Assembly (NCBI RefSeq): GCF_002105155.1
Contig: NW_019028998.1
Location: 372,001 to 436,000, forward strand
Length of the DNA stretch: 64,000 bases
Direction of reading: 5' to 3'
From: Lobosporangium transversale
Taxonomy: Eukaryota
How positions within the stretch are numbered: the first letter of the stretch is position 1; every line of letters begins with the position of its first letter. The notes beneath the pieces were generated by a model. It was given only the letters and a program-made list of their open reading frames with translations, was not told the DNA's origin and ran no database searches. The translations under genes were made by a program, and so were the position numbers. Of this stretch, positions 45,579-64,000 are shown one piece after another.

Positions 45579-45717
45579 GTTTGTTCTATTTGGTTGTTCT
45601 TGCTGATGAGATTCTCCTTGCCAAAAAGTCGTAAACTAATTTATTTTTCAAGATTTTAAATTGAATAAAATACTCCCATTTTTAAACACCGAAAAAGTAC
45701 GTACAAAACTCAAAATT

Positions 45718-47448
45718 TTAATTTTTTCGAAAGCGTTTTCTATTATCAATGAGACGCTCCTCCTCAGACTCACTATCCTCCACTAAATTTAATACGGTTC
45801 CAACATCTTGGACAAGATCCTCTATCTCAGACTCTAGGGTAACGGCATCGGCTTCATCTTGGTTCACTACTCTATCAAGTTCCATGTCCCACTCGTAGCT
45901 GTCCACTCTAATCGTGTCTTCCAAGTCCTCAACAGTCTCCTGTTCATCAGTGGCCTCTTGATAAACTTCTTGATCAAAGGTTTCTGCTTGTACACGACCT
46001 CTCTCATTGTAGTACCTCATACCAATTTTCACAGATTTTTTCCATACAGAGTAGAAGACTCTACAAGGAATCTGGGCAAACAAGCTGAGTAGCCTTTTCT
46101 TAAGTAACAAGGCTGTCATTGTCGTCCTTGCTTCTGAAGCGATTATATTTTTCACGACAGCCCAGATCTTTTCAATAGGCTGTAGCTCGCAATGGTACGG
46201 TGGGATCTTGAGTATTTCATGACCGCCGTTCTCCTGGGCAATCCTGCTGACAGAAAAATACGACTCGTCAGGAATTGCGCTAATCAATCCCATAAGCTCG
46301 TCTTTATTTAATGCTTTTCCATCTTCCCTCGTTGGAATAGCAATATTTTTATCCGCAAGCCATGCTTTGATAGTCGCCACAGTGTCTCTCTTAGTCGGCT
46401 TTTTATTTTCCTTGTGGAAATGATATGAAGCGCCATCATGATGGATTTGGCAAGGTCCAAGTCCCATCTGGTTGAGATTCTCACAAAGTCGTTTAAATAT
46501 ACTATCAAATATATTGGCATTGAAATTCCCATGATAGTCGTGATCCGTGGCTACAACTCCTGCGTCCCTGATCTCTACTGGCACATCGGCCCACAGCTCA
46601 GCCTCCTGTTCTTGGCCTTTCTTCGATTGAGGCTTTGGCCCTTTAGCTGGCCAGACATACACGCTGTCCCTGACAAATTTGCCCTCGACTTTTTTCATGG
46701 CTTCATCATAGTACACAACGAATGCCGCGAATATAACCACCATTGGTTTCCTTCCCGCGTCGTTAACAACGCCACCACGCCTTTGGACCCAACGTCTTGC
46801 TGCAGCATGGTCAATGTGGCAATAGGATTCATCAAGGAAGACCTCTGGCATTTTAGGCACCCAATTTCTGTCAATAAATCTTAAATTCTTGAGGCACCGC
46901 TCAAGGTAAGTTGCCCGGAATGCGACATTCTTCTTGGAGTCATGCAGGAAGTTCTGTCTAACCCCTTTACCCCAATACAAGCCCATTTTATGAAGATCGC
47001 GAGTGATTGACCTCGCTGATCTGCCGATTCCATAGTCTTCTTTAAGTTGGTTAGCGACTATTGCCGCCGAATTAGGGGTCCCAGCCTTGTTTGATTCTAC
47101 TATGATAGACATCACCTTTGAGCTTACATTCTGATCCATTTCTTTCTTTGGGCGTCCAGTTCTTCCACGCTCAGTTCTCTTACATCCCGTTCTTCCACGA
47201 TCTTTGATATCGAGGATGCCTGTGGTAGCAAGTTTAATTGCTGTCAAACAAGCGTTCCTCCCTACACTCGTCAGAGCCGATAAATTGTCCGCTCTATCGG
47301 GAGTTTTCATAAACCACTCTCGAACCGCTTGTGGTGTCTCCTCCGCGGTTATAGCTTTAAAGATATGCGCTATCATAACGTATTCATTACGTGTTATGGT
47401 CGCTTTACTGCGAGTAATTTCATCAGTGTCCTTCTGCTCGTTCGACAA
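45718..47448 (-). CDS. DDE transposase, IS630-Tc1-mariner superfamily (DD87E)
   Basis: HTH-like region (IVANQLKEDYGIGRSARSITRDLHKMG) and catalytic VFLDESY, HHDGASYH, PPYHCELQPIE. The frame stays open upstream to about 47600, so the true start is unresolved. Confidence 0.9.
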   Translation of the reverse strand: MSNEQKDTDEITRSKATITRNEYVMIAHIFKAITAEETPQAVREWFMKTPDRADNLSALTSVGRNACLTAIKLATTGILDIKDRGRTGCKRTERGRTGRPKKEMDQNVSSKVMSIIVESNKAGTPNSAAIVANQLKEDYGIGRSARSITRDLHKMGLYWGKGVRQNFLHDSKKNVAFRATYLERCLKNLRFIDRNWVPKMPEVFLDESYCHIDHAAARRWVQRRGGVVNDAGRKPMVVIFAAFVVYYDEAMKKVEGKFVRDSVYVWPAKGPKPQSKKGQEQEAELWADVPVEIRDAGVVATDHDYHGNFNANIFDSIFKRLCENLNQMGLGPCQIHHDGASYHFHKENKKPTKRDTVATIKAWLADKNIAIPTREDGKALNKDELMGLISAIPDESYFSVSRIAQENGGHEILKIPPYHCELQPIEKIWAVVKNIIASEARTTMTALLLKKRLLSLFAQIPCRVFYSVWKKSVKIGMRYYNERGRVQAETFDQEVYQEATDEQETVEDLEDTIRVDSYEWDMELDRVVNQDEADAVTLESEIEDLVQDVGTVLNLVEDSESEEERLIDNRKRFRKN

Positions 47449-47711
47449 GAATGGGTTTGAATCGGCGGAAATGGAAGACTGCCTGGCTTCTTTCTTTGAA
47501 GAAACACCCTTGGTCCTACGTCTAGGAGGAGTGATCCACCGATATTGTGTGGGATCTTTGAGGTGATCTTCGGGGTGGAGTTGCTGATGTTCCTGAAAAC
47601 CTTAGATCGATAGGGCCTAGCTCGTTATACAGATCACCTGTCATCATATGCGGGCAAGTTATGGGTTTCAGGAGGGAAAGACATTTTACTCCTTGATAGA
47701 TGAGAATATGA

Positions 47712-47757
47712 ATGAGGATGAGGATGAGGATGAGGATGAGGATGAGGATGAGGATGA
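47712..47757 (+). repeat. (ATGAGG)7 microsatellite inside the transposon 5' region
   Basis: Read directly. Confidence 0.85.
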
Positions 47758-48368
47758 AGAATGAGTGATAGTATTGATCAATAGTAATCCATATATTTTT
47801 TTAAATAAGCTCTATTGATTTAAAATATTTGTACGTAAATTTCTTATTTCTCAGAGCTCAATTCAAATTGAGTATTTTAAAAATATATTAGTTTACGACT
47901 TTTTGGCGAGGATGGTTGGTAAATTTTATTCCTGATCGCGTCACTGTAGAGCTTAAGTCCTTCAATATAATTGAAATTCTACATTCGCATTCCCTTCTCC
48001 CTCTTGATCTTGCATGTTGACAATGTAACTGCCGTAACGGATTCGGCCGTCAACAATGTCTCTTCTACTGCAATGTCAATAAAGGATATATGCTGAACAA
48101 ATAGCTGTAGCGTCTCTTTGCTTTCTGTACATCTCTCTATGCCGGTACATTTTGCATCGCGGCGTTTTAAGGCAATTTGTATCGAAGACACAGGCATTTT
48201 CCAAAGGAGCCTCCAGAAGAAATAAACAGACAATCCTCGCCTTCGCTACGACCAACAAATCCCTAGTAGTTTTCCTCTCTTTTCATGAAATATAAGAAAA
48301 GTTCATTTTTGTTTATTCGATTAAATTAAATGAGAATCCATTGACAAGCGGGGCGGACTGTACTTCAT

Positions 48369-50637: not shown

Positions 50638-50979
50638 TTCCGTTATGAATAGAGTAGCTGCAAGAGTTAGATGGCTCTAATGGCTATGACCACAAATTTG
50701 GCCCTTTAGTCTCGTCACCAGCTTGAGAGGAAGCGCCTATGTACAGTACAGTACGCTACGTGTACGTGGTGCGAGGCAAATTGCCATTGAAACAGTAGCA
50801 AGGGAGCGGAAGTAAGTGAGAATAAGATGTGGGTACACATCACATCCATAGGATATTTATTCAGATCCATATCAAAGTATAACTACAAGTTTGTCTACGG
50901 GCGCATGTTTTCTGATACACAACCGTTAGTATATATATATATATCTTGTGTATATATTAAGTTTGAAATATGCAACATT

Positions 50980-53924
50980 CAGCATCCCAAGGTCCCCATA
51001 ATCCAAATTCTTTGATCCTATCTGTGTCTGGGACTCCTCGTTCATCCATTGAAAGTACTCATTGTACGTTCCCTTCCAAACACAGGGATAGCGCTCTCAA
51101 CCTCAATCATTCCTTTTTCACGCTTCCTTTTGTTCAACAGGTGATTGAAGCGGAGGACGGGGAGGTACAACCTGCTTCTCACCTTTACCGTTTGCCGCAA
51201 GTTAGGGTTGTGAGGATCCAGGGAGGAAAACGTAAGGGCGTTAACAATACCAGGATCGCATCCGACGATAGTTGTGGTGTTTGCGGATGGGCACCGCCCT
51301 GGTTTGTTGAATGTGAGCTCAACGTTTTCAAGCAGTTTGGAGCTCCTCTTCCAGTTTATGTTTGCATAGTCTTCATCTGTCAGGTCTTCACCAGCTGCCT
51401 TTGAACACGTCGTGTTGAGAAATCCCTGAGAAAGCCCCAGTTCTTGGCTGGGGTCTTCTTCATCTACGTCAGACTGCTGCTGTCTCTTCGTCTGGGTTGT
51501 GTCATAGGCAAGTAGATTCAGAACTAGACCATTGGTAGAAATCGTTCCTTTGAGTTTGAACCGAGTTAGATCTTTGCCCTGTGACTGCAAGGATACTTTG
51601 TCTCGATATCCAAGAACCATGCGATCGCCTCCAATGTCACAAAAGAGAGCCTGAATCAAAACCCCTTTTGTTCCCTGTACACACTCAAACATTGCAGTCT
51701 TGGAAGGATTGTCGAGAGGCAGAATACGCTCTAGTAGCTGCTTGGTATCTTCGTTCGCCCAGAGGATGTCAACTAGGACGTGTTCAGACAGATACACATA
51801 CCCGGGTGGCCAGGGGGACGTAGGAAAGTCTGAGTATTTTTTCACTTTTTTGTTCTCCCGCAAAAAAAACTCAATGTCGCTCATATCTTCGTTTGTTTTC
51901 TCGACATCAAACTAGAAAAAAAAAAAAAAAAAAAAAAAAGTCTGAATAAAGAGCATTTGATTGCAGAATATGCATGAAAATACCCTACACAAGCTATACC
52001 ATTGCGTTCCTGTAGTGCTGCCTTAATGATGTCTGTACTTGACCCATTAGTAGCTCTGACGCTCTGGAAATGAGATCTTTTTGGGATCAAAGCCTTGCAC
52101 GTCCCCCAATGTGATGTCTATTTCCTTTATTGGGGAAAGTTCAGTGGTGGCCTTGAAATATTCATAAGCGAGGAGGTAATGGGGCGTTTCTACCGCCTTT
52201 CCTTGTTTTTTTGCCCTCGCGTAAGCTGAATTGGGGCCACCTTGACCACTTAAAAGAAGGATGGCGAGACGGAAGGAATAATCATTGCTATCCAAGACCT
52301 CGTCCAGTGCCTTTTTCCTCGACTTTACTGCCCCTGGTAACCGCATGATCCTCTCAATGTCCAAGGCAATCGCCCAGTATGCATATCGGCGTAGTCGGTT
52401 GAGGACAACAACTGTCCCTCGGATCTGGCTTGCAATACTATCCCTTTCATCTGCGTCCAGTCCGCCTTTCCTTGCCATGGAGGCCTTAAGAGACCCAATT
52501 GTTAAGGCCTTGATAGGGTGCTTACTGCTGTAGCTGTGATCAACCCTCGTAGCATCCTTCAAGTTCCTAATTGGTGCACCTTCTTTTTTAGCCCTGTGGG
52601 GCTTCTTGCCTTTGTGCTTCCGCTTTTGTTTTTTCTGTTGCTTCTTTTTTGCCTTTCTCCGACGTGGTGGATGCTTAAGACCCGGCCTATCGTGCTGACG
52701 GCAGTTACTGATATCAACTGTGCGCCCATTCAATATGCTCGCCTTGTCAGAAAAGATGGGCCGGAACTGGTTCCTATGTGACCCTTCCGCTATATAGAAT
52801 GATGGTGCGCCTCTACATTATCCAAGAAAGGGACTAACGATTAGTATTGGGATGTATGGTTTCAAGGCCAAAACTATAGCTTGAGCTTTCTTACGTTCTG
52901 CGGCGCTGCGCTCGCCTTTGCTGAGCCATTCTATGGCGAAGATCCTTTCCATTGAGTAGACGCTGCTTGAAGTTATCGAACTCACTGTTCAATGGTAATG
53001 CTTGGGCCGACGTTTGATGGCCGGAAGTAAAAACGCGGAGAGCTACTCTGAAACGGCCTTCTTCAGAGGCTGCGTTCCTTCCCAACACCTTACTAGCTTC
53101 CCTTAGGTAGTCCCGAAGCATTTTATTGTAGTTCTCGTTCCACGCAACCTTTCGAATTAATCGAAGATTATTAACCGGGCCTAACGTCTCGAGGTTCCTT
53201 GAGTAGTCATTGCCTGCGATGGCACAGAATAACACCAGATGCGCGTGTGATGGCAGTCTTAGTGCTTGGATAACGTTGCCTACATCGTAAACCCCAAACT
53301 TCCGTCTACGGCGCGGAAGGGGTCGCACTAGGAAGCAGACCGTTCGTACGCAAAAAAATCAGAGTCTTGGGATATCACGATTCTATCATTCTCCTCATTA
53401 TGGCACCCTATACATGGGTCCGCTTCATATGCACACAGACAGACATCGAAGACAGAGCTAAGGCCTGTTGTCAGCTGATCCTTGTCCTGGGCGCTCAGGG
53501 TGTGGACTTCTCGAAGACCCTTCTGGATGCGCCTCATGACTTGAGGGCGAGTCCATACCCCACTCCGAGAATTTCTCTCGAAGGTGCTCATAGCGTTCTC
53601 CAAAGCATCCATATTTTTTTCTGTTATGACTTGCCATTCTGTCCTTGCTTTTTCTTTCTAAGGTTCCCCATCAATATGTATAGTCAGATTGTCCGTTATG
53701 AAAAGATCCTTTATCACGAGAGCCAGGGACCTTCCTACATCAATGATGGATTCGTTTTTCATCTTTGCATGGACGACTCTGCGGAGGATGTCGTAATAGA
53801 ACGTACCGAGGAGATCTACATGAACAGAATGGTCAGGGTTTGCCGCCAAGAAAGTGCCCACGTCAGTTTCCGAAGGTAAAACCCCGCGATCCGCAACCAG
53901 TTTGAAGAAGGACTTCAGCCCCAT
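50980..53924 (-). pseudogene. Disrupted 3-exon gene: N-terminal XPG/FEN1-like nuclease fused to a C-terminal TnpB/Fanzor-like region (RuvC-I present, RuvC-II/III missing)
   Basis: XPG motifs MGLKSFF, VHVDL, IHIDG, YEADPCIG, ISQDSDF, AGNDYSRNLETLG. In-frame introns 52813-52894 and 51912-51999. C-terminal LKGTISTNGLVLNL and IVGCDPG. In-frame TAG at 53658-53660, frameshifts near 53340, 52065 and 51075, and 3' truncation. Confidence 0.72.
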
Positions 53925-53984
53925 GGCCAATATCTAAGCGAAAGAGAAAGAAAAAAGGAAAAATGGTGGCGATGAAAAGAAATG

Positions 53985-54019
<35 letters not shown>

Positions 54020-56909
54020 GACAAAGGTATAAAAGGATGAGCTTTTTTATATTGAGGAAAAGATACAGGAACAAGTGGCAGTGGTAAAAGGGATGGGACT
54101 TTGAAGGAGGAAGACAATGATCCCTTTTTATATCCTGGATTGATTGAGTTTTATCATTGTCTCATATAGTTTTGATATCGATCCTTTGCTTCACAGGCCA
54201 CATCAATCTTTATTCAGTTCCTTTGTTTGGATTGGGGTTTTGTTCAAGTCAATAGCAGAGATTGACAAATAAATACAAGCTCTCGTATGAACGGCAGATT
54301 GGAAACAATAGCATTGAGATACCAAAGTGAGCATTCGAAAAAATCATCTCCAGATACAGCATACAGTGTCGATGTCGATCCTTTGTTACATAATTTTTTT
54401 TTTTTTTCAGTTTCTTTTGTTTGCACTGGCCCTTGCTTTGTGCTTTGTGAGGAATTTAATGAATAAAAGAAGATTTATAATTTTGAACAGGGGTAATAAA
54501 TGCCTCGGTGATTATATCCTTGTCAAAGGTAACAACTAAAGAAAAAAAAGTCTTTTTTATCAGAGAATGGCTTCATATGATGCTCTTTGCTCCAACAGCC
54601 CCAGTACTATTGCGTTAAAGCAGAGATATTCGTTGACTCTCAGATTCCGGCATCAATGGCGGAGATAGGAGTGATGTAGTTGCATGCGCTTATTGCTTGG
54701 AGTAAAAGCTATCTAAGCACCCTTTCTTACTGGACGATGCCTTGTTAATGGTGATATTGCGCAGCGCCTTGTGGATGGAGGGAGAGCAGAAGCGAGAGTG
54801 GTGGTTTTTGGCGGTCGTTTGGTGTGTGTATGTGTGAATTTGATAGTTGATATCAATCGCCAAAACATATGCATCTAGAAATACAGAAGCGAGATTGATA
54901 CCGACGCGTTTGATCCTTTCCTAGGGATTGTTATAACCATGGGATGATTGTGGAGTGGCCGCCAAAATAAAGTTTGTTTGGAGGCACCAATGGAAAACGC
55001 TTGTGTTTTGAACAAAAAAAGACGTCGCGATGTAAAATGTGTTTATACATGTACAGAAACTTAAGAGATGCTTCAGCTGCTTATTCGTGCACACAGTGAT
55101 TGACGAACAAAAAAGGAAAAAAAAAGCCCGCGATGAAAGAAGGCATGTGCAGACAACAAATAAACACAGCTCACATACATTTTTTTCACCGTTGTGTCTG
55201 TATCTCTTCTAAGCTTTCTGTCTAGCCGTTTAACACAAGGAACCCTCAGAAAAAGAAATACCTCGCATGATTGGTGCCAGGTCTGAAAACAACAACAATG
55301 CATTGCTGTACGTGGAAGATAGGGTCTATAAACTATACCATTGATCACAACCGCTACCCATGCTCTCTTGCCAAGGACTTTAACAGGCATAGCAGCCCCT
55401 TCTTCCTTGCTCTCATAACCGCTCACATCCTTTCGATGCATTCTTTCGCCATTTATGTCCACTACATCTGAACCACACACAATTCACCACTCACTCCAAC
55501 AGAGATATTTGTATCACCTTGGGTATGATATGTTGCTGTGGTTCCCTCCGGTTTCAACAGGCCCAACAAACTCTATAAGCTGTTTACCAAGCCAGATATA
55601 TCAAAGGAATGCAAGAAGACGAGGAAGCGAACGATGTGACAAATCAAGTCTTGCCGAGCTGTACAAGAAAAGATCAAGTTAGTCAAGCTCCATGGTGCGG
55701 AAGAATGGTTCCACTCAGATTGCCCTCCTTTCAAGTCGATACTACGGCAGCGAATATTATCGCTGTTATATTACATCAGTCAATAAATAAACGATACAAT
55801 GGACTCCCAAGGGGATGCTAGGGTCATGCGAAAGTCTTTCTTTCGATGTCGAAATAAATGACCGAAAACTAAATTGTCATGGAGCTATCCTGGCTTCTTT
55901 ATTTGTGCAAATAAAAAACTCATGAAATTTCAAGACAATGCCCATGGATTGCTGGCAAATTTGTGAGTCCCCTTAGATACTCAAGTTAGCCAAATATGCG
56001 ACAGCGACACCCTTAAACAAAAAATAAAAGTTATTTCATGTGGGTCATGTGAGCCAAAATATATATGGAAGTTCACTCTAACCTGTCTCTAAGTCCATAA
56101 TCATATGGGAAAACCATATATAAAAGTCAATTAAATGAACCTCAATCCAAACCGAACTTTGGATAATGCCAAAAGACACTAATATAAAGCGATATAGAGT
56201 AATTGAAGTTTCTGAAGAAATTGAGTATCCGTAGTGACATAAAAACCCAAGTGTAGCTTGGTAGACACTTGTTTAAAAAAATGTTTCGTTGAAATTAGTA
56301 AAAAAAGCAGAGCTCTATGATAAAGCCTTCAAACTTCACCATATTTTCAGATTAAAAGGACATGTCAATGCTGAATCCAACTGTGGTATTTTTACAGCGA
56401 CTTAGTTTACAAAAATAACCATCCTTACTGTTTAAAGATGGAGGAGAGACTATAAATTCCAGAAATTACTCTATTTAGAGAATTCAATGGGCATATTCTT
56501 GACAACCGCATTGCTAGTTCCTTGAAGTGCATATACATGGCTTATAGATATAGCTTTTGGGTACCAGAATCTATATTTTGCAATGTGTATCGCCATTACT
56601 GACAGAGTGATATTACTTTTGAACGAAATAAGATGTACGTAATCTTGAATATTTTCAATGTACAAGTTCTTTGAATGGAGGTATCTTACTGAAGACTTAA
56701 CCGAATCTTCTCAAGTTTTTTTTTAAATCGTACCAATGGATCTTACCTACAAAATATATGGTTTTCAGTCTTGTAGATACTCTATCTCAACAGAGAATGG
56801 ATTTCTTTTTTTCATTGTTCTGTATAAAAAAAAAAAAAGAAATCCTGATTTCTGATTGGCTATTTCAATTGTGCTCTCTTTGATTGAATTGGGTTGAATA
56901 GTTTTTTGA

Positions 56910-59634
56910 TCAAATATATACATGTAAATATTTTTTTTTTTGGCGCTGCCGTTTTTGGTTCCCAGATGTATTTATCGTTCTTTGTAAAGAACAAAACCGT
57001 TCAACTATATCACTTAATTCCCTTGCTGCGTCGGAACTTCTCACAATGCTATCTGAATCATGGAGACTCTTTTTGAGTATCTCCAAAGATTCAGTAACCA
57101 CATCAGCAATCCTCTCCGCCTCAGCAACCTCCTCTGCTTCAGCATCCTCTACCTCCAACAGAGCATCACTCATGCTGGGGTTAACATTCCCTTCCAGGCC
57201 ATCTTGAAAACTCTGGATCATAGCATGTCTATCAGGGACCCTCTCAAGGACATCATGTATGATGTGGAGTGGTGGGTCTGGGTTATCCTTATGAACTTGA
57301 TGCAAAAGATACATATGTCTGCAGGGGCGCTGAAAATACATAAAGTACTGACAGTTACATCTTGAGATAGTTTCATTCGTGGCAACCACGAAATAATATC
57401 CGCCAGATACGGAGAACGAGCGCACACAGTAAACGGTTCGGTCTCCCACTTGCTGCTCGTGAACAATGCGCTGTGGAAGGTCTTCTAGACCATCTAGAAA
57501 TTTTCTTTGGTGAAAGTCATCTCTCTCGCCTTTTAAATGTTGCCCATAGCGTCGCACAGTCTGCATTGCCATCATTTGGTAAAACTCATCTACATCATGA
57601 GTTAAGATATAAACCAATCTATCTCCCCTGCAGTTTGTATAACCTCGTAAGAAGTGCGACTTAAGGTGGTTGTGCCAGGACTCGACGTAATTGTTAGTAT
57701 CCATCCCGGCATAAAACTTTCCCATACGATAACATTTCATCCACCTTCTCCTTCGGTCTTCACTGAGGTACCGTTATCTAAAATAATTCCAGACTTTGCC
57801 CTGATTATGATCCTGCCATTTCAACTCGAATTCTGAAATAAGAGTCTCAGCTCGCGTACGGTTTGGATCAAACAAAATTCTACGGAGCTCCCCCATCGCT
57901 TCCTCCCTCAACTCCTTAGCTGCCTTGTCTTGCGTTGCACAGATAACATTTCGAAGCTTGGTGCTCCAAGCTTTCATAACATGCCATAGACATAAATGAA
58001 CTGTGACTGAGTCTCCAAACGCCAATCGGATTGCTTTGTATTCTGCTCGAGCATCATCAGTGGTGATGTATTCAGGAGAGCCAATGGTTTCTCTGATATG
58101 TTTCAACCATTTTGCCAACGGTACATGGCTATGATCGTTCGTAAGCAAGAAGGCAACTGGGATAGCACTCAGACTTTGTGGGTTCCGCACAATTATGGTG
58201 TAAAGCTGGTGTTTAGAGCGATTTGTTCCATGCGTTGAATCTAGCCCAATGTGTTTAAAATTGGATCCATAAACTGATTTCTGGAACGGCGACATAAACC
58301 CATATGCAAATCTTGCATGATTCACCCCGTCTATTATGATGTGGTAGTCGAGCGTGAATACAGTGAAGCCCTTGTCCTTTAGTTTGTCCATCCAGAGCCT
58401 CATCGAGACTAAGTCATTCTTTTCAAGCTGATTCTGCCCACTTGAATATTTATAATAAATATTGTACACATCCTCATACTTCAGGACATGGTCACGCTGC
58501 AAAGACCCTCTTTGGTGTCGCGAAAATGCCTGGCTGCCAGACAGGTTTATCCTTGTCAGAATCTTTCTTGTACAGAGACCTAAACGGACAAGGTTTCGAA
58601 TTCGTGATTTTGTTTCTTCTGTCACTCTGAGATGTTGAAAGACCTCGAGACTGGCAAGAGTATGCCCAGTGTGCTTGTAGTAATATATCACACGCAGCTG
58701 GCTCCTTTCTCCTCTACTTGCGAACTCTTCCATATTGGGTTTTACGTCATGAACAATTAGTCTGGCTTTACAGCCTACTTTCTTGGTCGGTTTATAAACA
58801 TTGCGAGTTTTCTTGGCTGGCCTCTCAAGTAGTTGATCTTGGTCAGCAATCTTTTTTTTGCGTGGGGCGCCTGCACAGTGGCAGAAATAAAGTTGAAATG
58901 AATGCAGTTTGCCTTTGCTATCATTGTCGTTGATGATTTCAGAGTCTTCATTGTCTTCATTTCTACCATTTATCTCAGAGTTGCCTTTATTCCAAATAAA
59001 AAAGTGATCGCTGCCATCTCGATCCTTCCACAGTTCAAAGTCTCTTTTGTCCACATAGAATACGTGCGGCAAATAATCGTAGTCCTGTTTTTTAATCCTG
59101 AGGCCATCAACAATATCCCTAATCTTAGCCTCTGGGACCATCGACTCAATCCAAGAGTATTCTTGTAGCTGCGCAGACACAATTGTGGAAGCCAGACTGA
59201 TTGCACGAGCCTCCTCATCTTGACTCAACCCCGATATATCCTCTACTTCTTCTACGTTATTTTCAGATGGCGCCTCAACGAAAGTTTTCTTAAGAGATTC
59301 TGTTGCGAGATCATTCCCAGAGGTATTGTCTTCACCGGATGGTTCAACTGGCCCCCACACTATTTCTGGCTCGGAATCTGACACATCCGAAGAATAGTCT
59401 TCACCATCATCACAGTCGTGCTCTTCAGGATCCGTATCAACGTCGGTAGCTTCATCATGATCGTAGAATTCGAAGCCTGGCTCAAGGACCTCTTCAGTTG
59501 CATCCTCACCGTTACTCGAGGCAACTAAGGTATCAGTAGTGAGGACCTATAACTTGCATTAAGAAAAATAATTAACTATAAGCTAACGAACTAATCGAAA
59601 TAGCTAGCATGTTCGTGATATTTATAAATACCAT
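56910..59634 (-). mobile_element. Mutator-like (MULE/MuDR) transposase gene with SWIM finger, inactivated by one in-frame stop
   Basis: YFCHCAG...GCKARL...HTGH DNA-binding region; catalytic LDSTHGTN, ITTDD, CLWH, TNNYVESWHN; SWIM CNC...PCRHM. TAA at 57774-57776 is followed by in-frame RYLSEDRRRRWMKCY. TIRs not identified; 5' exon structure approximate. Confidence 0.88.
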
Positions 59635-60288
59635 TGTGGAAAGGACGGCTATCTCAGAAAGGAAGACAGAGAGTTAGAAATGAAGTAGGCTAATTTGAAT
59701 TTACGCGTTTTTTTTTTTTTTTTTTTTTTAAAAAAAGTAAAAAGGTTACCTGGGACAAGAGATGGACTACAGAAACACGAGAAGGGCCTGAATGGAGTCT
59801 GCAGGAGAGCTATCCTGACATAAATAAAATGGGTAATGAGCGATGGAAGAGGATTAAATGGCGGTGATTCGGAAGTATCAACTGGCAGAAAGGGATGGAT
59901 TTAGCAAAAAGCCTACTACGTCACCTCATTATAAGTTATAACTAAAAACCTTGTGACGGACGAAGGGATAAGCCACACAGCCTGGTGACGAACCTCCTTT
60001 CATCAGCACACCAACTCATTCCTTACAGCAAGCAACATTTAGAAGAGCTGTTTGCTCACTACAGACGACTTACTAAACAGTCTTTCTCTTCTCTCTTTTC
60101 TGTAGCCATAGCCACATGAATACTTGGAAATACCTGGCAAAGGAAGAGGACAGGACAGTAAGTGATGGAAAAATTTATACTAATTCATATTGATCATCAG
60201 TGCTGGAGACATAATTGAGGACTCATTCACATTTTCCTCCTCGGTCTTTCTCTTCATCATAGTTACCTCTCCTTTCATCTAAGGCACC

Positions 60289-60508
60289 TTGCTGAGCATT
60301 GAGTCCCTGCCTATCTGGATGCCGCTGAGCATTTGCTCCCCGCATCTGGAGACGTCGCCCAGGACGGTTGGCACGGACTATGCAACTCTGCCCAATGGCT
60401 ATGCAGTCCTAGCCGCTGATCTTGGTTCCACGGCAGTTGGAGAGATACCAATGAGTGAGAGGGACCATATGGTTCGTCGAGCTCACCCCGCACTGGGGTA
60501 CTCAGCGA
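60289..60508 (+). ncRNA. Putative structured ncRNA, unit 1
   Basis: Terminal stem TTGCTGAG/CTCAGCGA; several internal hairpins with G-U pairs favouring the + strand. No known family recognised. Confidence 0.45.
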
Positions 60509-60531
60509 ATTCTTTCTTGTCCTTGCGTATT

Positions 60532-60800
60532 GCTGAACATTGAGTCCCTGCCTATCTGGATGCCGCTGAGTATTTGCTCCCCGCATGCCGCTGAGTATTT
60601 GCTCCCCGCATGCCGCTGAGTATTTGCTCCCCGCATCTGGAGACGTCGCCCAGGACGGTTGGCACGGACTATGCAACTCTGCCCAATGGCTATGCAGTCC
60701 TAGCCGCTGATCTTGGTTCCACGGCAGTTGGAGAGATACCAATGAGTGAGAGGAGCTACATCGCTCGTCGAGCTCACCCTGCTTGGAGTGGGTGTTCAGC
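60532..60800 (+). ncRNA. Putative structured ncRNA, unit 2
   Basis: Terminal stem GCTGAACA/TGTTCAGC; compensatory variant hairpin GAGC-TACATC-GCTC at 60753-60766. Confidence 0.45.
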
Positions 60801-60831
60801 CAAATTTTGATGTTTTACGCAATGGGTGCCT

Positions 60832-61073
60832 TTCTGGATATTGAGTCCCTGCCTATCTGGATGCCGCTGAGTATTTGCTCCCCGCATGCCGCTGAGTATT
60901 TGCTCCCCGCATCTGGAGACGTCGCCCAGGACGGTTGGCACGGACTATGCAACTCTGCCCAATGGCTATGCAGTCCTAGCCGCTGATCTTGGTTCCACGG
61001 CAGTTGGAGAGATACCAATGAGTGAGAGGGACCATATGGTTCGTCGAGCTCACCCTTCATTGGGTGTCCAGAG
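60832..61073 (+). ncRNA. Putative structured ncRNA, unit 3
   Basis: Terminal stem TCTGGATA/TGTCCAGA, followed by T-runs (TTTT, then TTTTTT). Confidence 0.45.
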
Positions 61074-62439
61074 TTTCATCTCTTTTGTCGCTTTTTTATC
61101 TATCGATTTTTATCCGCCTGCTTTCTTTTTTTAGTAATGGACCGTGGAAGCAAGATCACGTTGCAAGTAAGCATTGACTGCTATAACGGTAGAGCCGGCA
61201 GAAGAGATCAACCTAGATGCTTGTCTGCTAGGGCCATGGGCTCACCACAGAATCCTTCTTTTGGTCTTTCTCCTCCTCCGTTCATTGTAATTAGGAAGAC
61301 AACCAAGATTGTTCAAATAACATATGAAATACTGTTCACAAACGAGACGAATGATGCATAATTTAGCGTCTTCAACCAAAATGAATAAAAGTCTCTTCTA
61401 CATTCGTCACTCTAAAATAACGTTCGGGATTCAGCAAGTCGAGCTGTAAAAAGACTCCGATATCTTATCCTAATACATAGTCCACGCATAAATCCTCGTC
61501 TGAAAAACTGCTTCCTCTAGTTCTTAAACTAAAAATAAACCTCAATATAAGCGTTATCCCATCTTATTCAACTTGGCAACCTCTTAATATTTTTAATTGG
61601 ATTAATCTAATTTGCAGCCTAGGTGCCAAATATAATGAATTTAGAAGACTCTCTTTGGCAAACCAGTTGTCAAGGAACACCCTCATGATTTGCTTGGCAA
61701 CCTATCTAGTGTTATTTGACCTCTATTTCTTGTTTTTCTGTAAAATTCTCGTATCTTGTTTACTGAGAACTATCCTGTGTTGATGAGAAGCACAGGAGTT
61801 CCTGTTGAACTTGTTGACATCCAACAAAAAAAGGTTTCAACGAGCTTTTTGATCGTGACATTCATCTATAATCCAGTGACAGTAACGGCTAGAGGTGCGT
61901 CAACATATTTATACGATCCTAATGCTTCCTGTCTTTCGACATTTTTATTTAGAGGAAGCCCGCCGATTAAAAGCGAGTTTTAATTGAAAGACTGAAATAA
62001 GGATAAAGCTATTTGCGCGACTCGTACACCCCTTATTTGTACCACCCCCGTGCAAATAAAAATAAAAACTATTTGCAAGGCGTCTTTATTTCATCTACAA
62101 GCGGCAACGTGTATCCTACAGACTACATTATTCTAGCTTTTTTATTTCGAATGAAATAAACAAAGATGAGTCTAGAGTAGTCTAGAAGTATTACTGTTGG
62201 AAGTTGCAGTGCCGTAGGAGCCGCGATACTCATCGCGTTCTGTTGCATATTCCACAGTATGCAATATTATGGTAGAAAAAAATTAGGGTAAAAAACACTA
62301 ATGCGCTAAAAAGATTAGCAGTAGAAATTAGTGGCAATAACGCGCCACACATAGACGCGATAAATCTTTGATTTGAAGTTTTTAAAACGAATTTTTGTCA
62401 TCCTATAGATAGATACGTAATTACCTCCACCAGAAAATG

Positions 62440-63611
62440 AATAAATGCCCCATGGGTGTGATGTGTAGACCCATATCCTGTTCTCACTTACTTTTCTATC
62501 TACAAAATATTTTAACGCTCTATTCCGCTCTACAGTCACCCGAAAGAAAGTCTGGTCAGAGTTTTTTTTTTTTTGAATTCCTGACAAGCAGCTCATTTGT
62601 GATATACAAAAATACTTCACCACCCAAGATGGAATTTACACTTTTATTAATGAGGCCAATGTGGATAATCACTGAAGTTTTTGGGCAGTACATGCTGATT
62701 GAAGAGTACTTCTCTTTAAAATTTTATTTTTTGAGCAAACTTTCTTTCAGGTGATTGTACAATATGAAGCTCTACATGTGCTGCTGAGTATGCGACACTG
62801 CGTGCTTCAGACGACCCAAGGCAGGTTCTGACTATTTTATTGGTGAAAAATCAACCCTGATAATAATAAACTTGGAATGTAATGAGACAAAAATAAGGAT
62901 CTTTATCAATGTAACAAAAAAGAGTGTTTTGGTCTCTTCGCTATCACTATTCTATTAAAGTATTTTAGCTATTTAGATATAGGGATATAGGTAATTATAG
63001 CACGATCGGCTTTGAGTGAGAACTGCCACCAACTATCAAAAGATTAGTAATCTCTCGGGTTACAAACGGGTGAGAGGATAAACATTCCACAAAATAAATT
63101 GAGGTCTACCCATTGCATTTTGGTGAATTTAAACAAAATTTAGTACCGAGGAAACACACTCAAACGCGTCGCTTCTGTTAAAAACCATGTTGTAATCTAT
63201 ATTTCTGTATGCATATATTTTCTCAACTATCCAATTCACACACCCACACATCAAAAGATTGCCCTCTTTCTCGCTCTCCCATCCATCTACAAGACGCACT
63301 GTACAACATCACCAACAAGGTACCACCCAGCAAGAAGAGGGTGATTAAATAGCTTTTACCTCCAAGCAATAAACACAATCAACAATGTCGCTCCTATTTC
63401 CACCATTGATGCCGAAATCTGAGAGCCAATGAATATCTAACGCACGCAAATGTACTGAAGGTGTTGAAACAAAGAGCAACATCTGAATCCATTTTCTGAT
63501 AAAAATAAAACAGTCCATGCATTCACTGATGAAAAGTTTTTGGCAGACAAGATAAATAGTAGAGTAAGAACAAGATGTAGGTCTACATACCATACCCATG
63601 GGGTATTTATT
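62440..63611. repeat. Old 49-bp inverted repeat pair about 1.07 kb apart (possible TIR relic)
   Basis: 62440-62488 matches the reverse complement of 63563-63611 at 41/49 ungapped positions; all 8 differences are transitions. Confidence 0.7.
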
Positions 63612-64000
63612 GAAGTTTTTATCATATTTATCAGAGCATATTAAAAGCATAGCTACAGGTCTGTGTACGAGAAACATAGAGAGAGGTATGTTCAGAAAAA
63701 GTATAAAATGTGCGTCATTAATACAGGATGAATGTCCATAAGCACAAGAAAAGTATTTTCTTTAATCTTTTATGCAATGGGCGCCCTGTAAAGAATGCAA
63801 CAACTGTCTCCATCCCTGTGAGAAATTATAATTTACTATTTTCTTTCGACCTTGAACGTAACTCAGGCAAAGCATTAGATTTTCCAACAAGACAAGAGCC
63901 GACCGCGGCGAGGCCATGATCTTTGGCTCGTTTATTTTATTTCTTTGGCATTTATAATATCATGAGGTTTTATATGTGCTGTGCCTTGTGTGTATACTTG

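Follow-up and report, generated by a model that had tools for sequence, protein, structure and literature searches.

Three tandem structured repeat units within an exon of a spliced, probably noncoding RNA of Lobosporangium transversale

In a 64-kb window of contig NW_019028998.1 of Lobosporangium transversale (the window being the whole stretch of DNA that was analysed, to which all coordinates refer), repeat searching and alignments confirmed the presence of three tandem units. Their number, place and near-identical cores were as the initial annotation of this DNA had described them. The units lie together in the second exon of a spliced RNA, the features of which are as follows.

60082..60157, + strand: exon 1, RNA contig joined to 60263; 5' end approximate, C/T-rich tract
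60116..60295, + strand: 24-codon frame opened by the first AUG of the spliced RNA, crossing intron 1
60158..60262, + strand: intron 1, 105 nt, GTAAGT...ATAG, with a branch-point-like TACTAAT
60263..61166, + strand: exon 2, containing the entire three-unit array
60291..60506, + strand: unit 1, 216 nt, with closing stem (P1), conserved core and 3' hairpin
60319-60343, + strand: 25-nt repeat of unit 1, one copy
60462-60475, + strand: variable hairpin of unit 1
60476-60488, + strand: invariant island of unit 1
60507..60531, + strand: linker 1, 25 nt, U-rich
60532..60800, + strand: unit 2, 269 nt
60560-60634, + strand: 25-nt repeats of unit 2, three copies
60753-60766, + strand: divergent variable hairpin of unit 2
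60767-60779, + strand: island of unit 2
60801..60832, + strand: linker 2, 32 nt, U-rich, spanned by RNA contig 60724-60869
60833..61072, + strand: unit 3, 240 nt
60861-60910, + strand: 25-nt repeats of unit 3, two copies
61029-61042, + strand: variable hairpin of unit 3, same sequence as that of unit 1
61043-61055, + strand: island of unit 3
61167..61294, + strand: intron 2, 128 nt, GTAAGC...TTAG
61295..61560, + strand: exon 3, 3' end approximate
61534-61539, + strand: AATAAA, about 20 nt upstream of the RNA contig end

A segment-wise comparison of the units detected a core identity of 99 to 100% (21/21 and 143 to 144 of 144 positions), and a 20-nt word of the core occurred three times where 0.01 occurrences were expected by chance. 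The units differed in the number of copies of a 25-nt internal repeat located in the first long hairpin, with 1, 3 and 2 copies in units 1, 2 and 3, respectively, a difference that was absent from the initial annotation. Only 3 to 6 of the 7 positions of the P1 strands were common between units. The variable hairpin was identical in units 1 and 3 (12/12 positions) and shared 6 of 12 positions with unit 2, while the 13-nt island immediately 3' of this hairpin was identical in all three units; the flanks of the island in unit 2 were diverged, with 6/12 and 4 to 5 of 9 positions in common. The linkers had been described as unique sequences of 21 to 31 nt, but they measure 25 and 32 nt between P1 ends and are U-rich look-alikes which resemble each other and are not independent. 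As the variable parts pair internally and the linkers are alike, the proposed scaffold-plus-variable, guide-like layout could not be upheld. The GC content of the units was 0.56, compared to 0.43 and 0.35 in the flanking exons. A model derived from the three units detected no fourth unit in the 64-kb window, and self-BLAST found nothing else in the window that resembles the units. Two candidate protein-binding words were observed: the 8-mer GCCGCTGA, present in both long hairpins of every unit with 9 copies in total, and TGAGT, with 11 occurrences on the + strand of 60291-61072.

Transcription of the + strand was confirmed by spliced contigs in one run, X5. Joints were present at 60157>60263 and 61166>61295, both with GT..AG borders in the + orientation, and both were missing from all three DNA runs; X5 was recognised as RNA by these joints, none of the listed runs that contain the stretch being on record as RNA. 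There was no X5 cover in either intron or flank, the listed contigs explaining all of the bin depth, nor in the bin at 59955-60025 upstream of exon 1. X5 contigs ran from exon 1 into unit 1, from unit 2 across linker 2 into unit 3, and from unit 3 into exon 3, which indicated that a long transcript exists. The spliced RNA is about 1.25 kb in length (1246 nt), comprising three exons of the + strand between about 60082 and 61560; this expression evidence derives from assembled contigs of a single RNA run, in which ends are approximate and level and processing are unreadable. X5 was without cover at 60463-60522, around linker 1; as records are removed by a filter and DNA run X4 has a similar hole, nothing was drawn from this gap. 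The unique parts of the RNA gene were covered by single contigs in the DNA runs, and the stretch was present in 7 of the 8 listed runs, all with one species label.

As introns are spliced on either side of the array, the array is part of exon 2 and not a set of separate Pol III genes. T-runs had been noted after unit 3 and discrete transcripts of 220 to 290 nt had been envisaged. The T-runs are not an RNA end, since the RNA crosses them to 61166 and is spliced to 61295-61560. The units lie inside one spliced transcript, and the contigs gave no support for discrete transcripts ending at the T-runs. The GT-AG introns and the AATAAA about 20 nt before the end would be consistent with transcription by RNA polymerase II followed by polyadenylation. 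A tRNA or Pol III gene was rejected, as ARAGORN detected no tRNA, there is no B box and the RNA contig runs through the T-runs.

The coding potential of this RNA was low. The 24-codon first frame stops at a TGA within the 5' strand of the P1 stem of unit 1, the longest AUG frame has 82 codons and each unit has an AUG frame of 66 to 82 codons; a stop-free stretch of 60 codons appeared in 35% of shuffles. The 74-codon frame of unit 1 had no relatives at an E value of ≤0.1 in a word-indexed protein search, and an exhaustive search of 1.84 billion proteins detected one weak match (E value of 1.2e-4, 33% identity), a repeat protein that looks unrelated. A scan of metagenome contigs with six peptides matched 596 stretches, none of which was confirmed. 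A protein-coding repeat exon was rejected because there were no credible relatives, because the variable hairpin changes 4/4 residues between units and because the 25-nt repeat shifts the reading frame. A selenoprotein with two in-frame TGA codons was also discarded, as the AUGA...GA helix is too short and is without an adenine-rich loop, judged by SECIS rules. The RNA is therefore probably noncoding, as had been proposed, with no AUG frame longer than 82 codons and no credible protein relatives.

The influence of strand on folding was consistent across the units. Folds on the + strand were better than those of dinucleotide shuffles in all three cases (z scores of -2.7, -4.4 and -3.2), while the - strand was not better than shuffles in any (z scores of -1.0, -1.3 and -0.4), in agreement with the strand favoured previously. 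In the predicted fold, P1 would close each unit and a CUGCC/GGCAG stem would enclose two long hairpins, the first of which could be extended by the 25-nt repeats. These elements would be followed by a hairpin with an AGAGAUA loop, an irregular helix that contains tandem G-A pairs and carries a sequence-free hairpin as its cap, and a short 3' hairpin. The predicted closure of P1 depends on sequence context: the modelled probabilities for units 1, 2 and 3 were 0.28, 0.78 and 0.0 in the whole spliced RNA, 0.77, 0.98 and 0.0 with span limited to 300, and 0.08, 0.98 and 0.98 when each unit was folded with its own flanks. Pairing of the 5' UGAGU with GCUCA, considered as an alternative, had a probability of 0 and was dismissed.

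Comparison of the divergent stems detected a retention of pairing. The P1 strands are GCTGAGC/ACTCAGC in unit 1, where 6 of 7 positions pair and there is one C-A mismatch, GCTGAAC/GTTCAGC in unit 2 (7/7) and TCTGGAT/GTCCAGA in unit 3 (7/7, one being G-U), and three pairs have changed on both sides with pairing kept. The variable hairpin is 14 nt in every unit and that of unit 2 differs at 6 positions; among its pairs, one has changed on both sides, one has gone from G-U to A-U and one is broken. For the two variable helices together, 37 of 39 cells were standard pairs and 4 pairs were double changed, whereas only 26 to 41% of cells were paired when the register was slid by 1 to 3 columns. The observed covariation scores were reached by 17 to 18 of 500 shuffles. 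In a neutral-mutation test that holds the number of changes constant, P1 gave p values of 1.5e-5 to 1.5e-3, depending on which unit was taken as the ancestor, and the variable hairpin alone gave a borderline p value of 0.056; these values are based on three sequences from one locus and on four pairs. An unanchored duplex test of the flanks gave p values of 0.15, 0.16 and 0.036, reaching significance in one of three units, and the 5' flank of unit 1 paired equally well with the 3' flank of unit 2 as with its own. The core helices are invariant, with zero covariation and hence no comparative support.

Three statements of the initial annotation on these stems were accordingly retained in part. 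The divergent unit ends do pair and carry double changes, but the C-A mismatch of unit 1 had been left out. The internal hairpin of unit 2 is mostly paired despite its different sequence, but one pair is broken and the test is borderline. The 3' hairpin was seen with ACCC/GGGT kept and with differing loops, but its stem is invariant and so shows no covariation. The compensated stems and the invariant island between divergent segments point to selection on RNA shape. Identity of the 13-nt island despite divergence on both of its sides points to selection rather than to gene conversion alone.

Searches for known RNA families did not identify the units, in line with the earlier failure to match them. 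Rfam 15 gave no matches at an E value of ≤1 over 58000-64000, none at an E value of ≤10 over unit 1 with ribozyme families included and none at gathering score over the 64-kb window. A box C/D snoRNA would carry a C box (RUGAUGA) 3' of its 5' stem and a D box (CUGA) next to the 3' strand of the closing stem; it was rejected, as the + strand has no C box even with one mismatch and CUGA occurs only internally. A box H/ACA snoRNA, with its two hairpins joined by a hinge and its ACA tail, was judged not to fit the predicted fold, which is a closed multi-branch, and had no Rfam match. There was no Sm site common to all units. RNase P/MRP RNA was set aside, the CR-I and CR-V motifs that would form P4 being absent and Rfam giving no match, and the TPP riboswitch, SRP RNA, sarcin-ricin loop, VS ribozyme and group I intron were rejected for a wrong order of elements or a missing partner and for lack of Rfam support. 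Crude descriptors detected no hammerhead core, hairpin-ribozyme loop B or HDV topology on either strand. A Pumilio-type motif was absent. With regard to telomerase RNA, the template of which would be complementary to the telomere repeat, neither CCCTAA nor TTAGGG occurs in the spliced RNA, although the telomere repeat of the host may differ.

In order to find homologues, collections of viral, metagenome and prokaryote sequences were scanned. Four DNA patterns detected 17, 26, 19 and 2 loci in viral contigs, a pattern detected 119 loci in the 27 of 64 parts of the metagenome contigs that were scanned (about 290 being estimated in all), and 23 loci were detected in prokaryote genomes. None of the 206 loci was an RNA homologue, with scores of ≤17.9 bits compared to 276 to 306 bits for the units themselves; as the collections hold no fungal genome set, this negative result does not show species specificity. 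The best locus, at 17.9 bits, was rejected since its alignment leaves out 149 positions of the model and it is located within a long open frame. A blastn search returned no phage records and 3 plasmid records with matches of 27 to 41 nt. Literature searches found no description of such an RNA in the main texts covered. A screen for structured fungal RNAs by covariation (PMC8216456) concerns Ascomycota only, as far as its main text goes, and the main text of PMC5640933 makes no mention of Mucor, Mortierella or Rhizopus; Mucor, Mortierella and the word "tandem" are absent from both main texts. The RNAs of these two reports are comparable with the present one in that, by the same main texts, they were found by covariation.

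The region from about 45 kb onward is rich in transposons and decayed elements, and the features nearest to the RNA gene are as follows.

50900-53925, - strand: broken gene with XPG/PIN-like and DUF8286 regions, stops and frameshifts
about 55965-59950: MULE element of about 4 kb, its ends taken from the continuation of other copies
56940-59453, - strand: MULE transposase, a single frame interrupted by one internal stop near 57771

The MULE transposase is 52% identical to an unnamed protein of 879 amino acids. Several differing copies of this element were detected in the DNA runs, and the left terminal repeat of the copy in the window looks decayed. Near 59948, the sequence of other copies runs on into 18 nt that mirror 55970-55987, and from this the ends were placed at about 55965 and about 59950. 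At 59774-59948, and again from 61596 onward, the DNA runs show stacks of several contigs that differ from one another. The start of the RNA gene is about 135 nt past the end of this multi-copy MULE; the gene is oriented head to head with the transposase and most likely lies just outside the adjacent MULE. The possibility that the array is Pack-MULE-like cargo within MULE inverted repeats was weakened by the loose-end match of the other MULE copies, and local alignments of 61550-62450 or 59900-60100 against the far end gave scores below the shuffled maximum. Contigs of X5 were also observed over the MULE 5' region (59742-59948), one of them from a differing copy, and the MULE family appears to be transcribed. 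A multi-copy diverged repeat (61596-61700) begins about 35 nt past the apparent 3' end of the RNA.

The broken gene joins an N-terminal XPG/PIN-like nuclease motif to a C-terminal DUF8286 (PF26935) region which matches mostly Mucoromycota clusters and contains a RuvC-I-like motif. No Pfam match was obtained for the ORFs of this gene, and it is possibly a Fanzor/TnpB-related, lineage-specific element.

Overall, the locus is a real, transcribed, structured repeat in a spliced fungal RNA, and in kind a repeat-built noncoding RNA. None of the four outcomes that the initial annotation had named as refuting its proposal was observed, the covariation evidence being that of the three units, as no homologues were found. 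It is likely that this fungal noncoding RNA has not been described before, and its fold is unmatched in Rfam. The explanation we consider best, with a probability of roughly 0.4, is an intact, modular, spliced lncRNA that offers the same folded module in three copies to a protein or RNP partner. Such an RNA would be a noncoding platform for the putative multivalent binding of the same protein or RNP by three modules. In P1 and the hairpin caps only shape would matter, while the invariant core and the 13-nt island may carry the putative binding surface. Segment groupings conflict, with P1 linking units 1 and 2, the repeat arm units 2 and 3, and the variable hairpin units 1 and 3. These three conflicting groupings fit an old tandem triplication followed by gene conversion: the stems would have diverged with compensation and the cores would have been homogenised later. 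Gene conversion means that core identity alone is no proof of constraint, and the identical core may reflect recent conversion instead. Against a platform, neither a conserved homologue nor a recognised protein-binding motif was found in the searches made, and the location in a transposon-rich stretch is a further caveat.

A related but broader proposal is that the units represent a new eukaryotic class of structured RNA, in which a multi-branched domain of about 220 nt occurs three times in a spliced Pol II exon. The domain would be a catalytic or tRNA-elbow-like recognition module, the neighbouring AGAGA and UGAGA sequences would form a double T-loop platform, and the copies would be insulated or cut out by their closing stems. 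We regard this as unlikely. To our knowledge, large ornate structured RNAs beyond the textbook set are rare in eukaryotes.

The precursors of box C/D and H/ACA snoRNAs in yeast and plants are Pol II transcripts of tandem units with sequence-free terminal stems and short linkers, and yeast and plant snoRNA clusters are processed by a double-strand endonuclease and linker trimming. The present RNA resembles them in its noncoding precursor layout of tandem related units, sequence-free terminal stems and short linkers. By analogy, the transcript could be a polycistronic precursor in which P1 stems mark or protect the ends of three stable RNAs of 215 to 270 nt, released by a double-strand endonuclease together with trimming of the U-rich linkers. 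Unit ends that pair yet are free in sequence, linkers that are short, U-rich and poorly conserved, GC-rich units (0.56) between poorer exons (0.43 and 0.35) and a first frame of only 24 codons are all in keeping with such processing. However, snoRNA precursors differ from this RNA in having a C box and a terminal-stem D box, neither of which was found here, and there was no common Sm site and no Rfam match to an snoRNA or snRNA. The long spliced form was also readily assembled, with a contig across linker 2, which argues weakly against cutting since contigs hide RNA ends. A precursor is the main rival explanation, though a somewhat unlikely one. Self-cleaving or self-ligating ribozymes of an unlisted class, whether retrozyme-like or from a captured viroid-like RNA, might be expected as tandem, GC-rich units of 200 to 300 nt with paired ends, and variant fungal ribozymes escape standard descriptors, as the text of PMC5640933 has it. 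The absence of a hammerhead core, hairpin loop B or crude HDV topology on both strands, the lack of an Rfam ribozyme match at an E value of ≤10 for unit 1, the bridging of the transcript across linker 2 with no back-joint listed for X5, and the restriction to three copies at one place in the window make ribozymes improbable. Insofar as retrozymes and viroid-like ribozyme repeats are described in published texts, they share with the array tandem, short, GC-rich, structured and transcribed units, whereas the units here have no known ribozyme core and are found at one locus, in a spliced host transcript with unique linkers.

An absence of function was also weighed. A foreign or transposon-derived GC-rich structured fragment could have been triplicated and be transcribed from the MULE end as a neutral relic. 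In favour are the start of the gene about 135 nt past the end of a multi-copy MULE, its head-to-head orientation with the transposase, the many decayed elements of the region, the lack of any homologue in the searches made, and the single species label of all runs with a near-identical stretch (7 of 8 listed runs). Nevertheless, the compensatory changes and the invariant island need structural selection at least during the divergence of the units, and both introns are removed, neither having any cover in X5, such that we consider a relic rather improbable. An mRNA for a micropeptide, with the 24-codon first frame followed by a long 3' UTR holding three regulatory or localisation elements, draws on the fact that this frame stays in phase across intron 1 and ends where unit 1 begins. 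It is quite improbable: 24 codons are within chance and too short for protein searches, and an intron lies about 870 nt downstream of the stop. Very improbable is a scaffold-plus-guide array serving a transposon-borne RNA-guided nuclease, such as that of the broken DUF8286 gene 6 to 9 kb away. The proximity of a gene with XPG/PIN-like and RuvC-I-like motifs and a Mucoromycota DUF8286 match suggested this array, but self-BLAST detected no similarity of the units to the 3' end of this gene or to the rest of the window, the variable segments are paired and the linkers are alike. A Fanzor/TnpB omega-RNA array was rejected on similar grounds, there being in the window neither nuclease 3'-end homology nor unpaired unique guides.

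The preferred reading of a platform RNA was compared with NORAD, which has, in the portion of PMC4947167 describing its repeats, 12 diverged, structured units of about 300 nt with Pumilio elements bound by Pumilio proteins. Likeness to NORAD, as portrayed there, consists of a long noncoding RNA of tandem duplicated units of a few hundred nucleotides each, with predicted stem-loops, structure-preserving changes and U-rich stretches. Two NORAD-like features were found at this locus, a 1246-nt RNA without a substantial frame (in one RNA run) and tandem structure-preserving units (in three sequences). NORAD, by the same portion, works by multivalent protein binding; such binding is putative here and the analogy is one of mechanism only, the two RNAs not being homologous. 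In contrast to NORAD as described in that portion, this RNA has three units, an identical GC-rich multi-branched core, end-closing stems and two introns, and has no Pumilio-type motif.

Similarities to RNase MRP and P RNA are the length, the paired ends, a long 5' hairpin with internal loops, a hairpin directly preceding the 3' closing strand and the AGAGA and UGAGA pentamers. Differences are the absence of CR-I and CR-V, the lack of an Rfam match, the triplication and the exonic location. The three copies already mark sequence-free helices as opposed to fixed nucleotides. If homologues exist across Mucoromycota, the units would constitute a new RNA family; if they are confined to this species, they would provide a clear case of a structured lncRNA that was born amid transposons, with gene conversion maintaining its uniformity.

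Further repeats were observed around the gene. Inverted repeats of about 330 nt with 74% identity (54554-54887 and 63196-63505) enclose the MULE and the RNA gene and represent either the termini of an older element of 9 kb, which would then carry the gene, or two insertions that occurred separately. A Tc1/mariner-type element at 45615-47912 has a 552-codon DDE_3 frame between 52-nt inverted repeats. Members of a terminal-repeat-like family of 55 to 60 nt were present at 50810-50863, 62438-62501 and 63550-63611, the latter two being inverted and bounding a MITE-like stretch of 1.17 kb.
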